A stretch of 64,000 nt of DNA from Candidatus Bathyarchaeota archaeon. Its GTDB lineage: Archaea > Thermoproteota > Bathyarchaeia > TCS64. The stretch covers positions 1-64,000 of the forward strand of contig JBDRQD010000066.1 of NCBI GenBank assembly GCA_043826455.1. Reading direction: 5' to 3'. Shown here one piece after another: positions 4,482-9,574 of the stretch. Each line of letters starts with the position of its first letter. The stretch's first letter is position 1. Below the pieces are notes generated by a model, which saw only the letters and a list, made by a program, of their open reading frames with translations, was not told the origin of the DNA and did no database searches. The position numbers and the translations under genes are program-made.

Positions 4482-4627
4482 GTGATCAATTCATTCTCAT
4501 CCCAAGAATATATAAGCCTAAACATTGTCGCTGGGATAATCACAAAAAAGTTGCATCATCTAATATAAAGTACATGGATAAGGGGCATGCCGTTATATCA
4601 CCGCGCCATTACTGTCTTGAGGATAAC

Positions 4628-5563
4628 ATGAGTGACGCTTTAGGGCTCGGCAAGGTAACCAAGGAGGTTTTCCGTAGAAGCGTCCTACCCTTCATACCAG
4701 TAGAGAGGGACCCTGAGCTTGACGGCGCCACCATAGGGCTCACAGGGCGCACCGTGATCGCCCACAGCCCCAGCATCGGGGTGCCCCTGGAGGCTCTGGG
4801 CTTCTTCGCCTTCCACTACTCCGCCAGCAACGTGGCGTGTAAGTTCGGGAGGCCCACCCACCTCATCACGGGCATATACCTGCCTCTGAGGACGAGGGAG
4901 GCCAACCTGATGACCATCGCCAGGAGCCTGGGGGACGAGGCAAGAAGATACGGGGTGGTGATCACAGCCGGCCAGACCGCCACCTACTACGGCCTAGAGA
5001 TACCCCTAGTAACCTCCACGTGCCTGGGGGAGGCCCTCAGGCACCCCATTAAGCCTGTTCCAGGCGATAAGGTGCTGCTCATCGGCGAGGTGGGCGACGA
5101 GGGGGTCTGGCTTAAAGGCCTCGAGAGGGGCGAGGAGTCCGAGGCGTGGAGGAGGTTCACGCCGCTGCCAGCCATCCTGGGGCTCCAAGGTGTCGACCAA
5201 GTGAAGGTGATGCATGACGTCTCCGAGGGCGGGGTTAAGGGTTCCCTTTACGAGGTGGCTGACAGCCTGGGCGTCGGCTTATCAGTGGACACGGAGGAAG
5301 TGGTTTACGCTGAGGGCGCGGAGAGGCTTGACGATGACCCGCTGAGGGCCCCCTCCTACGGCGCTCTGGTGGCCGTGGTGGACCCGGAGGGCATCAACCG
5401 TGTTAAAAGAGTGTGCGCCAGTATCGGCTGGCCCGCCACGTGCGTGGGGGACGTGGTTAAGGGCAAGGGGTTGAAAGTAGACGGCGTGGTGGTCACCGAT
5501 CAGAAAAGGATAGACCTTGACGAGATATACGGCTCATTCCAGGCTCCGCGGAGAGACCCCTGA
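4628..5563 (+). CDS. AIR synthase (PurM/ThiL/HypE) superfamily protein
   Basis: GKV N-terminus, MHDVSEGG motif, C-terminal D-E-I-Y. Confidence 0.8.
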   Translation: MSDALGLGKVTKEVFRRSVLPFIPVERDPELDGATIGLTGRTVIAHSPSIGVPLEALGFFAFHYSASNVACKFGRPTHLITGIYLPLRTREANLMTIARSLGDEARRYGVVITAGQTATYYGLEIPLVTSTCLGEALRHPIKPVPGDKVLLIGEVGDEGVWLKGLERGEESEAWRRFTPLPAILGLQGVDQVKVMHDVSEGGVKGSLYEVADSLGVGLSVDTEEVVYAEGAERLDDDPLRAPSYGALVAVVDPEGINRVKRVCASIGWPATCVGDVVKGKGLKVDGVVVTDQKRIDLDEIYGSFQAPRRDP

Positions 5564-5608: not shown

Positions 5609-5623
5609 GAAAACGTTTTAACC
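5609..5623 (+). promoter_or_regulatory. BRE/TATA promoter for riboswitch 1 and thiW operon
   Basis: GAAAACG-TTTTAA; first T is 28 nt before the aptamer start. Confidence 0.6.
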
Positions 5624-5643
5624 CCAGACATTGTTGAGCACCT

Positions 5644-5729
5644 GAAGGGGAGCTGGGCAACAGCCCGGCTGAGAGGACGTTGAATCGTCGACCCTTGGAA
5701 CCTGATCCAGGTAATACTGGCGGAGGGAA
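5644..5729 (+). ncRNA. TPP riboswitch (THI element) 1
   Basis: GGGGAGC-P3-GCTGAGA...ACCCTTGGAACCTGATCCAGGTAATACTGGCGGAGGGA consensus, upstream of thiamine genes. Confidence 0.95.
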
Positions 5730-5733
5730 AGAA

Positions 5734-6327
5734 GTGAAAGAGAGGAAACCGATAACCGGATTCTGGTGCAGTACACCGAACATCCCACGTTTTTATTTAG
5801 CCAGCCTCAGCGAAGAGGCCAGAAGTATAACGAAGGCGCCCTCGACTAGAAGGATCGCCCTGGCGGCTGTCCTGTCCGCGTTGACCGTGGCGCTCTCACC
5901 CCTATACATACCCTTGGGGGCCACCAAGTGTTTCCCGGCGCAGCACATGATGAACGCGGTGGCCGGCGTGCTCCTCGGCCCATGGTACGCCGCTGCCATG
6001 GCTTTGGCCACGGGAACTATAAGGAACATGTTCAGTCTAGGCACTCTCTATGCTTATCCTGGTGGGATACCTGGGGCGCTGGTTGTCGGCGTCACCCACA
6101 GGTATCTGAAGAAGGTTGACGCGGCAGCACTAGTGGAGCCCCTCGGGACAGTGGTAGTAGGAGCCACTTTGAGCGCCTTACTCCTGGCCCCCGCCCTGGG
6201 CCACTCCATGACACTCTACTTCTTCTGGGTGGCCTTCGCAGCCAGCAGCGTACCTGGAAGCGTGCTAGGCTACCTGGTCATCAAAACAGTGAGGCGTCTA
6301 GGATTTGACCAGTACTTCAATGAGTGA
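5734..6327 (+). CDS. thiW: ECF transporter S-component, ThiW family
   Basis: KCFPAQHMMNAVAGVLLGPWY, GTLYAYPGG, EPLGT, SSVPG; GTG start at 5734 inferred from GGAGG spacing. Confidence 0.9.
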   Translation: MKERKPITGFWCSTPNIPRFYLASLSEEARSITKAPSTRRIALAAVLSALTVALSPLYIPLGATKCFPAQHMMNAVAGVLLGPWYAAAMALATGTIRNMFSLGTLYAYPGGIPGALVVGVTHRYLKKVDAAALVEPLGTVVVGATLSALLLAPALGHSMTLYFFWVAFAASSVPGSVLGYLVIKTVRRLGFDQYFNE

Positions 6328-6862
6328 ACTGGCCAGAAAAAGGACCCTCATCGTGGGGGACGTGGGCGCCGGTAAGACAATTCAGACCCGTAGGCTCCTA
6401 GAGGAGGCCCTCAGTCTAAGCCTCGGCCCTGTCACAGTGATGGACATGGCTCCAGAGGCGCGGATGATGAATGGGACGCGGGTGGGAGGCCCACTTCTCG
6501 AAGCAGATGTCCCCGGGGTCAGGGTCCTGAGGAACAGGTGCATAAAGACGCCTCGCCTATCAGCTGTGAACACCAAGGACCTCGTGGAGCAGGCCCTGCA
6601 CAACGCCGTGGTGGTCGAGGGCCTTCTGGAGCAGTTCAGAGCAAGTCCTTCACCGGTCCTATTCATCAACGACGTCTCCATTTACCTGCAGCTGGGCGAC
6701 CTGGAGACCCTGTGGGACACCATAGCCATGGCCGAGACTGTGGTGGCCAACGGCTACTTGGGGGAGAAGTTGAGGGGCGACCACGGCTCAGGAGTCTCTG
6801 AGATGGAGAGAAGGGCGATGGAGGAGCTGGCTGACCGGTTCCACGTGGTGGTGAGACTGTAG
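6320..6862 (+). CDS. Uncharacterised small P-loop NTPase
   Basis: Walker A GDVGAGKT and Walker B-like LFIND; start overlaps thiW end. Confidence 0.8.
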   Translation: MSELARKRTLIVGDVGAGKTIQTRRLLEEALSLSLGPVTVMDMAPEARMMNGTRVGGPLLEADVPGVRVLRNRCIKTPRLSAVNTKDLVEQALHNAVVVEGLLEQFRASPSPVLFINDVSIYLQLGDLETLWDTIAMAETVVANGYLGEKLRGDHGSGVSEMERRAMEELADRFHVVVRL

Positions 6863-6902: not shown

Positions 6903-8261
6903 TTGAGTAGAGTGTATAGAGCCCTGACCATAGCGGGCTCAGATAGCGGTGGAGGCGCCGGCATCCAGGCCGACCTGAAGACCTTCGCCGCCCTAGGCGT
7001 GCACGGCATGTCCGCCATCACAGCCATTACGGCCCAGAACACCCTTGAGGTCACGGCTGTCCAGGACGTTGACCCTGAGATCATCTCAGCGCAGATAGAC
7101 GCCGTCGTACGGGACATCGGTGTCGACGCCGCCAAGACAGGGATGCTCCACAAGGCGGAAGTCATAGAGCTGGTGTCCGAGAAGGTCGAGGAGTACGGGT
7201 TCCCCGTGGTTGTCGACCCTGTCATGGTGGCGAAGAGCGGCGCTGTGCTCCTGGACCCCACGGCCAAGGGCACACTTATAGACAGGCTTCTGCCCCTGGC
7301 CACGGTGGTTACCCCCAACGCCATGGAGGCCGAGGCCATATCAGGGATAAAGGTGTCCACCATCGAGGAAGGCAAGGATGCAGCAGAGGCAATATCCGGG
7401 ATGGGCGCTCAGACTGTCCTGGTGAAAGGGGGCCACATATTCCACGAGGAGAAGGCAGTGGACATCCTGTACCACGAAGGCGTGTTCACGCTCCTGGAGG
7501 GTAAGAGACACGAAACCAGGGACACTCACGGCACAGGGTGCACCCTGTCGTCGGCTATCGCAGCGGAGATCGCTAAGGGTAAGGACATCCCCGAGGCCGT
7601 GGAGAGAGCCAAGGCATACGTCAACATGGCCATCCGGCACGGCCTCAGGATCGGCGGAGGCCATGGCCCCCTGAACCACATGACCGAGCTTGTTAATCAG
7701 GCGGAGCGGTACAGGGTGCTTGAGGACCTAAGGAAGGCGGTCAAGGTCCTGGAGGCTGCCCCGGAGCTGGGGAGCCTGGTGGCCGAGGTGCAGATGAACA
7801 TAGGGGTTGCCCTCCCCTACGCGTCCACGGCCGAGGAAGTGGCAGCCGTGGAGGGCAGGCTGACCAGGAGGAGGGACGGCGTCAAGGCGTCAGGCTGCCC
7901 CTGGTTCGGGGCCTCAGGCCACATAGCCAGGACCATCCTGGCGGTGAAGAGGTTCGACCCGGAGGTGCGGGCGGCCGTGAACCTCAGGTACTCTGACGCG
8001 GCAGTGGAGGCGTGCAGGGGCCTCGACCTTGTGGTCAGCTTCTACGACAGGAGGGAGGAGCCTGAGGAGATGAAACATGTAGAAGGGGGTACAACCTTCT
8101 GGGGGGCAGAGCAGGCCGTCAAGAGGGCTGGCATGGTGCCCGACGTCATCTACCACCACGGGGACTGGGGCAAGGAGCCCATGATCGTGGTACTGGGGGC
8201 GTCCGCAGCCCAGGTGGCGGATAGGGCCGTGGCGGTGGCAAGGAGGCTGACCGGCGCATGA
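6903..8261 (+). CDS. thiDN: Bifunctional HMP/HMP-P kinase and ThiN thiamine-phosphate synthase
   Basis: TIAGSDSGGGAGIQADLKTF, HGTGCT; C-terminal AEVQMN, FGASGH, GDWGKEPM. Confidence 0.96.
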   Translation: MSRVYRALTIAGSDSGGGAGIQADLKTFAALGVHGMSAITAITAQNTLEVTAVQDVDPEIISAQIDAVVRDIGVDAAKTGMLHKAEVIELVSEKVEEYGFPVVVDPVMVAKSGAVLLDPTAKGTLIDRLLPLATVVTPNAMEAEAISGIKVSTIEEGKDAAEAISGMGAQTVLVKGGHIFHEEKAVDILYHEGVFTLLEGKRHETRDTHGTGCTLSSAIAAEIAKGKDIPEAVERAKAYVNMAIRHGLRIGGGHGPLNHMTELVNQAERYRVLEDLRKAVKVLEAAPELGSLVAEVQMNIGVALPYASTAEEVAAVEGRLTRRRDGVKASGCPWFGASGHIARTILAVKRFDPEVRAAVNLRYSDAAVEACRGLDLVVSFYDRREEPEEMKHVEGGTTFWGAEQAVKRAGMVPDVIYHHGDWGKEPMIVVLGASAAQVADRAVAVARRLTGA

Positions 8262-8926
8262 GGTTCTCGGATCATCTTCGGGAGCAGGCGAAGGGAATCT
8301 GGGAAGCCATATTCGTGCACTCTTTCGTGGGGGAGCTTGGGCAGGGGTCCCTGCCCACTGAGAAGTACCTGTACTACATCAAGCAGGACTACGTGTACCT
8401 CCTGGACTTCTCCAGGTGCCTGGGGATCGCGGCCGCGAAGGCGACGGCGCTAGACGACATGAGCACCCTGTCAGGGCTCATGAACGGGTGCCTGAGCTAC
8501 GAGATGAACATCCTGGGCGGCCACCTAGCAGAGCTCGGGCTGACCCGGAAGGATTTAAGCGGCATCGTGATGGCTCCAACTAACCACGCCTATACGCGCC
8601 ACATGCTCGCCGTTGCCTACTCCGGGTCGGTGGCCGAGAACCTGGCCAGCCTGCTGCCCTGCATGTGGACGTACCAGCTCGTCGGAGAGAAGCTGTGGGA
8701 GGAGATGCCTGAGACCCTCGGCGGCCACTACCTGGAGTGGGTGAAGGGGTACAGGTCAGCCGAGTACAGGGGTCTTGTGGACAAGTATAGAGCGTTGATC
8801 GACATCCTGGGGGAGGCTGCGGGCAGGGCTGAGCGCTCAGCCATGGTCGACCACTTCATGACTAGCAGCCGGTACGAGTACATGTTCTGGGACATGGCCT
8901 ACAGGATGGAGACGTGGCCGGTCTAG
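8258..8926 (+). CDS. tenA: Thiaminase II / aminopyrimidine aminohydrolase
   Basis: YIKQDYVYL, LLPCMW catalytic Cys, EYMFWDMAY. Confidence 0.95.
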   Translation: MRFSDHLREQAKGIWEAIFVHSFVGELGQGSLPTEKYLYYIKQDYVYLLDFSRCLGIAAAKATALDDMSTLSGLMNGCLSYEMNILGGHLAELGLTRKDLSGIVMAPTNHAYTRHMLAVAYSGSVAENLASLLPCMWTYQLVGEKLWEEMPETLGGHYLEWVKGYRSAEYRGLVDKYRALIDILGEAAGRAERSAMVDHFMTSSRYEYMFWDMAYRMETWPV

Positions 8927-8930
8927 CCCA

Positions 8931-8945
8931 GTTAAACTTATATCC
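8931..8945 (+). promoter_or_regulatory. TATA promoter for riboswitch 2 and thiT
   Basis: AAAC-TTATAT; first T is 29 nt before the aptamer start. Confidence 0.65.
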
Positions 8946-8966
8946 CCGCACCTAGCGAGTTGAAGC

Positions 8967-9052
8967 GAAGGGGAGCTGGGCAGCAGCCCGGCTGAGAGGA
9001 CGTTAACGCGTCGACCCTTTGAACCTGATCCAGGTAATACTGGCGGAGGGAA
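8967..9052 (+). ncRNA. TPP riboswitch (THI element) 2
   Basis: 81/86 identical to 5644-5729, differing only in loops and junctions; ends 6 nt before the thiT ATG. Confidence 0.96.
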
Positions 9053-9058
9053 CCAGAA

Positions 9059-9574
9059 ATGAGTAAAGAGATAAACACCCGGGTATTGGCTGAGGTGGCA
9101 GTGTCCGTCGCCCTAGCCTACGTTCTTAACCTGATCATCGTGTACCACCTCCCGCAGGGAGGCAGTATAACCCTTGGCAGCATGGTGCCCATACTGCTAC
9201 TGGGCCTCAGGAGGGGCCCCAGTACAGGCGTCTTCGCGGGGGCCGTCTTCGGCCTCGTGCAGCTGTTCCTGGGGGGCTACTGGTTCACCCTTGTGCAGGT
9301 GCTCCTTGACTACCCAGTGGCCTTCGCGTGCCTGGGGCTGGCCGGCTTCTTCAAGAACAACCCCAATGTGGGAGTCGTCGTGGCCGTCCTGGGCCGCTTC
9401 CTGTGCCATTTCGTGAGCGGCGTGGTCTTCTTCGGGGAGTACGCGCCCCCAGAGTTGGGCCCTGTGGTCTACAGCATTGTGTACAACGGCAGCTACATGC
9501 TTCCGGAGCTGGTGATCAGCGTGGCTGTGATCTACCTCCTCATCAAGAGGGGCGTCCTAGAGTACAGCCTATAA
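9059..9574 (+). CDS. thiT: ECF transporter S-component, ThiT thiamine transporter
   Basis: LPQGGSIT, QVLLDYPVAF, HFVSGVVFFGEYAP, YSIVYNGSY. Confidence 0.94.
   Translation: MSKEINTRVLAEVAVSVALAYVLNLIIVYHLPQGGSITLGSMVPILLLGLRRGPSTGVFAGAVFGLVQLFLGGYWFTLVQVLLDYPVAFACLGLAGFFKNNPNVGVVVAVLGRFLCHFVSGVVFFGEYAPPELGPVVYSIVYNGSYMLPELVISVAVIYLLIKRGVLEYSL

Follow-up and report, generated by a model that had tools for sequence, protein, structure and literature searches.

TPP-family aptamers without a P1 helix and with an internal Shine-Dalgarno sequence precede thiW and thiT in a Candidatus Bathyarchaeota genome: a predicted translational switch

The thiW–thiT locus and its two aptamers

The window, that is the whole 64,000-nucleotide stretch of the Candidatus Bathyarchaeota archaeon contig that was analysed, contains two closely similar RNA elements (Table 1). 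The first of these (copy 1) is followed by thiW, an ORF of 185 codons, thiDN and tenA, and the second (copy 2) lies just past the tenA stop codon and is followed by thiT, with its BRE/TATA element beginning 4 nt after that stop. This thiamine gene context fits a TPP riboswitch, and both elements match the Rfam family RF00059 above its gathering cut-off of 54.3, with 63.9 bits for the match at 8959–9068 and 62.5 bits for that at 5636–5746. When 8967–9052 is aligned with 5644–5729, 81 of 86 nt are identical by alignment count. The pyrimidine-sensor arm (P2, P3 and J3/2) and the pyrophosphate-sensor arm (P4, J4/5, P5 and L5) are both present in the two window copies, and in silico the 86-nt RNA folds into exactly P2 to P5 with a z score of -3.75 (-3.61 for the 87 nt of copy 1).

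Table 1. Coordinates of genes, promoter elements and aptamer features at the locus.
Feature	Position	Strand	Remarks
PurM/ThiL/HypE-fold gene upstream of copy 1	4574..5563	+	Context; under every NCBIfam family cut-off
BRE and TATA box, thiW operon promoter (AAAACG TTTTAACC)	5610..5623	+	PWM score 12.2; first TATA base 5616
P1-less TPP aptamer, copy 1 (thiW)	5644..5729	+	Predicted start 5644–5646
Shine-Dalgarno GGAGG inside aptamer, copy 1	5722..5726	+	Read directly
thiW, ECF S-component	5734..6327	+	GTG start; TIGR02359 above cut-off; N-terminal extension of ~40 aa
185-aa ORF	6305..6862	+	Walker-A-like motif GDVGAGKT (read from translation); likely co-transcribed
thiDN, HMP-P kinase fused to ThiN thiamine-phosphate synthase	6903..8261	+	Family matches
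tenA, thiaminase II	8258..8926	+	Family matches
BRE and TATA box, thiT promoter (GTTAAA CTTATATC)	8931..8944	+	PWM score 8.0; first TATA base 8937
Predicted transcription start, thiT copy	8967	+	G after C; 2–4 nt earlier possible; from leaderless-gene calibration
P1-less TPP aptamer, copy 2 (thiT)	8967..9052	+	P2 8969–8972 with 9015–9018, extendable to 8967/9020
Further parts of copy 2: P3, J3/2 GCUGAGA, P3a, J2/4, J4/5, P5, L5 UAAU	within 8967..9052	+	
P4 and invariant A of copy 2	9024–9026 with 9047–9049; 9051	+	
Shine-Dalgarno GGAGG in J4/5–P4 of copy 2	9045..9049	+	G at thiM position 79 instead of U/A
thiT, ECF S-component thiamine transporter, 171 aa	9059..9574	+	PF09515; TIGR02357 above cut-off

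A third TPP riboswitch is found on another contig of the same assembly, where it precedes a thiW paralogue within a second cluster of the order thiW-orf-thiC...thiDN (L001, at G000:C32:795-3905, and L322) that is either paralogous or contamination of the bin, which is estimated at 7.2%. The 185-aa ORF, for which there was no Pfam or NCBIfam match, is conserved behind thiW in L001 and immediately follows the riboswitch in L067 and L087, and is a candidate for an unrecognised thiamine-pathway protein. In relatives, homologues of the PurM/ThiL/HypE-fold gene follow riboswitches at distances of up to about 600 nt. The ThiW N-terminal extension (5734–5850 in the window) comprises 18–41 residues in relatives and often contains a G-F-W-like motif.

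Relatives were collected by an RF00059 covariance-model search, which detected the riboswitch in 65 of the 71 genomes of the family, in 107 of 151 genomes of the class and in 32 of 151 genomes of the phylum. From 122 family matches, 102 were analysed; the 20 omitted were the weakest or lay at contig ends, and because the RF00059 model rewards P1, the omission of weak matches biases against a reading without P1. In the other families of the class 78 copies were parsed (77 after removal of one with masked bases) and two loci were not, and the combined archaeal class set comprised 179 aptamers, 44 of them without an identified downstream gene. Parsing failed for six of 20 loci from other classes. 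The covariation alignment contained 71 of the 102 family copies, with near-duplicates and the four P1-bearing copies of genus g11 excluded, and the bacterial comparison set of 64 titled loci yielded 59 copies with G at the position equivalent to thiM residue 79 (G79 copies) after five unparsed or truncated ones were dropped. Since the genomes are kin and hence non-independent, all of the counts given here overstate independence.

In the 71-sequence alignment P2, P3, P3a, P4 and P5 are 97–100% paired (98.2% for P2, 97.0% for P3 and 100% for both P4 and P5) and all but P4 show compensatory changes, including a pair in P5 that is AU in 37 sequences and GC in 33. Most core positions are 97–100% conserved in the 102 family copies, whereas the flanks vary (29–72%). 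Across these copies, from 11 genera, the J4/5 strands UGA and GCG and the L5 loop UAAU are invariant, as is the J3/2 motif CUGAGA, for which the count is circular in that the parser demanded CTGAGA, a motif that both window copies show directly. Wherever the downstream gene was identified, the aptamers precede thiamine-related or ECF genes. The feature is thus real and conserved, and judged by sequence and comparison both elements are TPP-family aptamers in which P2 to P5 are intact and the P1 helix is missing, for which reason they are classed as a variant rather than as canonical five-helix aptamers.

Promoter spacing and the missing P1 helix

The initial annotation placed a TATA-like box 28–29 nt before the G of GAAGGGG in both copies, and this is correct (29 nt from TTATAT at 8938 to G 8967, and 28 nt from TTTTAA at 5616 to G 5644), as is its statement that continuous identity between the copies starts at that G, upstream of which identity is scattered over the BRE/TATA element and a CCC. 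The two boxes had been quoted in different registers, however, and with a single position weight matrix their first bases are 8937 and 5616 and the predicted starts are 8967 for copy 2 and 5646 for copy 1. In this register the thiT box lies at -33 from the first G of GGGG. With the matrix softened so as to take in TTATTAA-type boxes, the best TATA box falls between -34 and -31 in 72 of the 102 family copies, with the mode at -33, and a count of TTWWWA that makes no use of the matrix gave 67 starts in the same interval and 0–4 at each of the remaining positions between -60 and -11. In family f36, which belongs to another class, seven of eight parsed copies have the same spacing.

The spacing was calibrated on leaderless genes of this genome, using 1684 long ORFs with free upstream DNA, in which the first base of the TATA box peaks 30 nt before the ATG (33, 62, 30 and 20 genes at -31, -30, -29 and -28, respectively, over a background near 10). 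This peak agrees with the median distance of 23 bp between TATA box and transcription start reported for T. kodakarensis (PMC4247193). Leaderless mRNAs of Haloferax start on the AUG in about 80% of cases and up to 5 nt earlier in the rest (PMC4983044). Comparison of the family mode at -33 with the leaderless peak at -30 would place the modal start at the G of GAAGGGG, a prediction good to a few nucleotides (about 4 nt). The G at -5 from GGGG (64%) and the A at -7 (52%) are conserved in the family and are not mirrored in leaderless genes, so that a start 2–4 nt before the named G is also conceivable; copy 1 has C at -5. The proposal that the transcript begins on the P2 strand is accordingly retained in part, in that the promoter spacing fits a start on or just before P2, and left loose as to the exact nucleotide. 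In the P2 strand, given as AAGGG/CCCTT in the initial annotation, the 14:52 extension can pair in 59 of 71 sequences, although neither 14:52 nor 13:53 shows covariation beyond that of shuffles in the 71 aligned sequences. Genome-wide, the peak at -30 is accompanied by a second TATA peak between -38 and -35 from the ATG, which would correspond to many leaders of 5–8 nt.

That the flanks offer no convincing P1 was confirmed by a helix search, which finds 1 bp in the thiT copy and 2 bp in the thiW copy, and cmscan reports non-standard pairs at four of five and three of five consensus P1 positions, respectively. The covariation alignment of homologues that had been suggested as a check gives the same answer, with the six P1 columns 28.9% paired as against 29.4% after shuffling (71 aligned); pairing as high as observed was reached by 345 of 500 shuffles, and sliding the register changed the value only within 24–36%. 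A register-tolerant search over all 102 copies gave a mean longest flank helix of 2.00 bp, compared with 1.67 bp for shuffled partners and with 0 of 300 shuffles as high. Genus g11 accounts for this small excess only in part (1.89 and 1.64 bp without it), and since the flank helix is slightly longer than with shuffled partners, a weak remnant of P1 may persist in the family flanks. The longest flank helix is 2 bp or less in 68 copies and at least 4 bp in 21 of the 102. When only the nucleotides predicted to be transcribed are allowed, with the start at TATA+30, a P1 of at most 2 bp is possible in 82 of 84 copies, and with 3 nt of slack in the start it is at most 3 bp in 77 and at least 4 bp in seven. 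In the window copies the values of 1 and 2 bp were obtained even with the upstream bases included as if by read-through, and the absence of P1 from them is thus independent of the start prediction.

Genus g11 (L006, L008, L013 and L028) provides a natural control with P1, as its copies have a GC-rich helix of 4–5 bp together with a TATA box at -38/-39, about 6 nt further upstream, and precede thiDN with a distal start. A strong P1, defined as at least 5 bp and -6 kcal/mol or lower, is present in one of 94 archaeal copies whose TATA box is proximal and in 11 of 59 whose box is distal. The idea that the start site caused the loss of P1 is only partly upheld, since 48 of those 59 distal-TATA copies also have no strong P1 and a short 5' end cannot be the sole route to its loss. 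By the same kind of comparison the loss is not tied to the placement of the Shine-Dalgarno sequence in the core, as 26 sister copies with a separate platform are nearly all P1-poor, and a purely archaeal loss is ruled out by P1-poor bacterial copies. In bacterial G79 copies with a near start codon the length of the flank helix is near that expected by chance (2.75 bp, against 2.39 bp; n = 32; 2 bp or less in 14 of the 32), whereas those without a near start keep P1 (3.96 versus 2.50 bp; n = 27). The -10 boxes of the bacterial G79 copies are scattered, and a start on P2 was not seen among them. Bacterial TPP aptamers in which GGAGG and a near start codon are combined with a P1 of 0–1 bp include L180, L196, L198, L226, L233, L241 and others.

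The internal Shine-Dalgarno sequence and the predicted switch

In both copies GGAGG lies where the initial annotation had it, 9 nt before the ATG of thiT and 7 nt before the GTG of thiW, but its assignment to the 3' strand of P4 applies only to AGG, the first GG forming the 3' side of the pyrophosphate loop J4/5. The motif results from a G at thiM position 79, where relatives carry U or A, and is complementary to the 16S rRNA tail of this genome (G000:C36), GGATCACCTCCT; the duplex with the anti-Shine-Dalgarno sequence amounts to -10.6 kcal/mol with G79 and to -4.0 kcal/mol with U or A. Across the genes of this genome, GAGG and GGTGA likewise peak at Shine-Dalgarno spacing. An in-frame start codon follows the Shine-Dalgarno position at 6–12 nt in 67 of the 74 family copies whose gene could be identified (49 ATG, eight ACG, seven GTG, two TTG and one ATA). 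Over all archaeal copies with an identified gene, a near start accompanies GGAGG in 84 of 98 cases and U or A at position 79 in 16 of 37; this comparison draws on copies from outside the family, because the family itself has no far-start U/A copy with an identified gene, and eight near-start copies have no GGAGG. ACG occupies the start position in frame with thiT or thiW in L039, L045, L046, L061, L070, L071 and L088, and ATA does so in L035, L164 and L168, which suggests that initiation at near-cognate codons may be driven by the Shine-Dalgarno sequence within the aptamer.

The view that there is no separate expression platform also stands, as the window copies leave no room for one between aptamer and start codon. 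A terminator-like hairpin followed by a U-tract after copy 1 (~5759–5810) was considered as a platform and rejected, because it sits within the extended N terminus of thiW, which forms an uninterrupted in-frame stretch downstream of the near start in 25 of the 26 thiW copies of the family (18–41 codons), and because the paralogue L001 has no U-tract at this place. The same reading frame led us to discard the idea that thiW begins only at its ThiW domain.

An argument that aptamers of this kind may switch comes from relatives of a different layout. A strand TCTCAG that could pair with J3/2 is present within 45 nt of 31 of the 179 aptamers, compared with 13 of 1196 background windows, and 26 of the 31 have no near start; of these 26, A or U is found at position 79 in 23, a flank helix of at most 3 bp in 23 and a proximal TATA box in 21. 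A competing anti-aptamer strand is hard to explain otherwise, and we infer from it that P1-less aptamers still switch. Two-state folds of 15 such examples were mixed, with the ligand-free Shine-Dalgarno sequence freer in about half and the reverse or no change in the rest, so that the argument rests on enrichment of the strand and not on the folds. In its fuller form this platform consists of a UUCUCAG(C) strand complementary to J3/2 and then a hairpin over a second Shine-Dalgarno sequence, as in L007:1590-1640, L009, L027, L036 and L081 (family f1) and in L126, L147, L149, L163 and L169 (f22 and f25); the f1 copies precede proteins of ~180 aa, and two of five tested matched an ECF S-component. 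Genus g12 has another type of platform (L033, L040, L041, L053, L056, L057, L059 and L073), in which a hairpin TTATCGTCAAC...GTTGACG is followed by GCATCC...GGATGC, with alternative pairing to P3a or P2 in some folds.

These features are probably best accounted for by a translational OFF switch at the predicted 5' end of the mRNA, in which the ribosome would lose access to the GGAGG of the aptamer once TPP is bound. Transcription would begin within a few nucleotides of the G of GAAGGGG, leaving the two sensor arms joined only by J2/4. Without TPP the arms would be undocked, the 3-bp P4 marginal, and the 30S subunit able to load; folding of 57 copies gave a median cost of 3.3 kcal/mol for opening GGAGG, which set against the -10.6 kcal/mol of the Shine-Dalgarno duplex suggests that the 30S subunit outcompetes P4, and a median P4 probability of 0.75 without ligand. 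In the thiT copy the Shine-Dalgarno sequence pairs with the P2 3' strand with a probability of up to 0.64 at one tested length, so that by these folds the Shine-Dalgarno sequence is not fully exposed in the ON state. This pairing was dismissed as a conserved state because its probability exceeded 0.5 in none of the 57 copies at one fixed length. Once TPP binds in the presence of Mg2+, it would bridge J3/2 and J4/5 and L5 would dock on P3, and if individual positions play the roles that we presume from the thiM structure, G78, A80–G82, G83 and A84 would be fixed in the pocket, P4 and the junction. The Shine-Dalgarno sequence would thereby become unavailable and synthesis of the transporter would drop. 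The lost P1 is probably offset by the GC-rich P2/P3/P3a arm, by an extension of P2 by 1–2 bp into J2/4 and by the invariant A84, and affinity may be below that of thiM. Taken as a whole, the interpretation offered in the initial annotation is mostly in keeping with the comparison, and we regard it as partly supported.

An alternative that we consider unlikely is that the fold is closed in a cryptic manner, with transcription starting 2–4 nt earlier and the purine-rich 5' end (A/G-G-N-G-A-A) stacking on the purine-rich 3' tail, or forming A.A or G.A pairs with it, in place of P1; the switch would still be translational. The conserved G at -5 and A at -7 would find a role in such a structure, pyrimidine-purine steps occur as often at -7 (29 of 66) and -5 (24) as at -3 (28), both flanks are purine-rich and pair slightly more than shuffles do, and thiM requires P1. 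Conservation in the flanks nevertheless remains at 29–72%, against mostly 97–100% in the core, there is no covariation, the C at -5 of copy 1 replaces the very G that would be involved, and the A-richness of the 3' tail is explained by its second use as the spacer between Shine-Dalgarno sequence and start codon. It is rather unlikely that the fold without P1 depends on stabilisation by a protein or by the ribosome, or that the main output is loss of the mRNA, through polar termination or through decay once ribosomes are excluded, with control thereby extended to thiDN and tenA. Copy 1 does head four closely spaced genes of which only thiW has its Shine-Dalgarno sequence in the aptamer, archaea possess factor-dependent termination on untranslated RNA, and naked thiM without P1 hardly binds; yet the alignment shows no additional conserved motif for a protein to recognise, a search of genome G000 for a stand-alone ThiR-like ThiN protein returned only two matches, both long ThiDN-sized frames, and occlusion of the Shine-Dalgarno sequence would still be required as the first step. 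Least probable, and in our estimate improbable altogether, is an element that binds TPP too poorly in the cell to switch and acts as a fixed structure damping translation of the transporter. The behaviour of thiM 72 and the P4 predicted to be partly formed without ligand are in line with this, but the ligand-contact loops are invariant in 102 copies from 11 genera, thiamine-related or ECF genes follow wherever a gene was identified, and sister copies retain an anti-aptamer strand.

Beyond the window, a translational OFF switch of this kind may represent a natural two-arm TPP riboswitch without a closing helix, in which the ligand is the sole clamp between arms that start at +1. Such an RNA would be the standard TPP switch of the whole archaeal family, with either an internal Shine-Dalgarno sequence or a separate anti-aptamer platform, and would recur unrecognised in bacterial copies with the Shine-Dalgarno sequence in the core, overturning the requirement for P1. 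We give this wider proposal an even chance. In TPP riboswitches P1 is regarded as the helix that does the switching, and a widespread natural form without it would show another way of closing the fold. If true, these RNAs would also be candidates for a metabolite-sensing translational riboswitch in archaea and would offer a compact OFF switch for archaeal genetics that is controlled by vitamin B1. The lineage provides sets for comparison with P1 (g11, f15, f17 and f6), without P1 and with an internal Shine-Dalgarno sequence, and without P1 and with an anti-aptamer strand. Experimental evidence for regulatory 5' UTRs in archaea was called very limited in 2014 (PMC4247193).

Comparison with known TPP riboswitches

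The placement of the Shine-Dalgarno sequence in the core is ordinary and known; the surprising part is the absence of P1 from an aptamer predicted to form the 5' end of its mRNA, which is at odds with a published requirement. Compared with E. coli thiM (RF00059), the window copies have the same P2, P3, P3a, P4 and P5, J3/2 CUGAGA, J4/5, L5 UAAU and A84, target genes for thiamine transport or salvage, and a predicted OFF logic at translation. They differ in the absence of P1, which thiM needs for binding, in the absence of an anti-Shine-Dalgarno/anti-anti-Shine-Dalgarno platform, in their predicted position at the opening of the mRNA behind an archaeal BRE-TATA promoter, and in the replacement of U by G79 that creates GGAGG. 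For the E. coli RNA thiM 72, from which P1 was removed save for its first potential pair, no response to a 10-fold and hardly any to a 100-fold amount of TPP was reported, and in the available part of that paper P1 is termed "a strict requirement" and the contacts A53-A84 and A85:U14 are given (PMC2018614). Work on the Arabidopsis TPP riboswitch indicates that TPP and Mg2+ act on the sensor helices far more quickly than P1 closes (PMC8208051), which makes a bound state independent of P1 conceivable without showing one.

A Shine-Dalgarno sequence inside the TPP aptamer core has already been described as "direct translation attenuation" (PMC2258182). As far as the available part of that description goes, the likeness is close, with the purine-rich 3' core serving as ribosome-binding site and the start codon following directly; in the window copies, too, the sequence in the core matches the 16S tail and in-frame start codons follow 9 and 7 nt on. 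The scheme in the same part of that work differs in that OFF states are drawn with P1 as the switching helix, and loss of P1 or a start on P2 does not appear there. Because the bacterial copies with the Shine-Dalgarno sequence in the core are often P1-poor (14 of 32 at 2 bp or less, as above), this contrast may lie in how the two have been described rather than in their biology. In a search of titles and the beginnings of abstracts, which covered few subscription papers and left aside supplementary alignments that may hold such sequences, neither a natural P1-less TPP aptamer nor a riboswitch from Bathyarchaeia was found described. TPP riboswitches of archaea are known from Thermoplasmatales, where their presence before putative transporters and their expression have been reported, and in the portions of these sources available archaeal riboswitches number 79 in Euryarchaeota, six in Crenarchaeota and one each in Korarchaeota and Thaumarchaeota (bioRxiv 10.1101/538918; PMC5473149). 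The copies described here resemble those of Thermoplasmatales in their archaeal host and transporter target, and in contrast to the rarity implied by those counts, 107 of 151 sampled genomes of a single class carry a TPP riboswitch.
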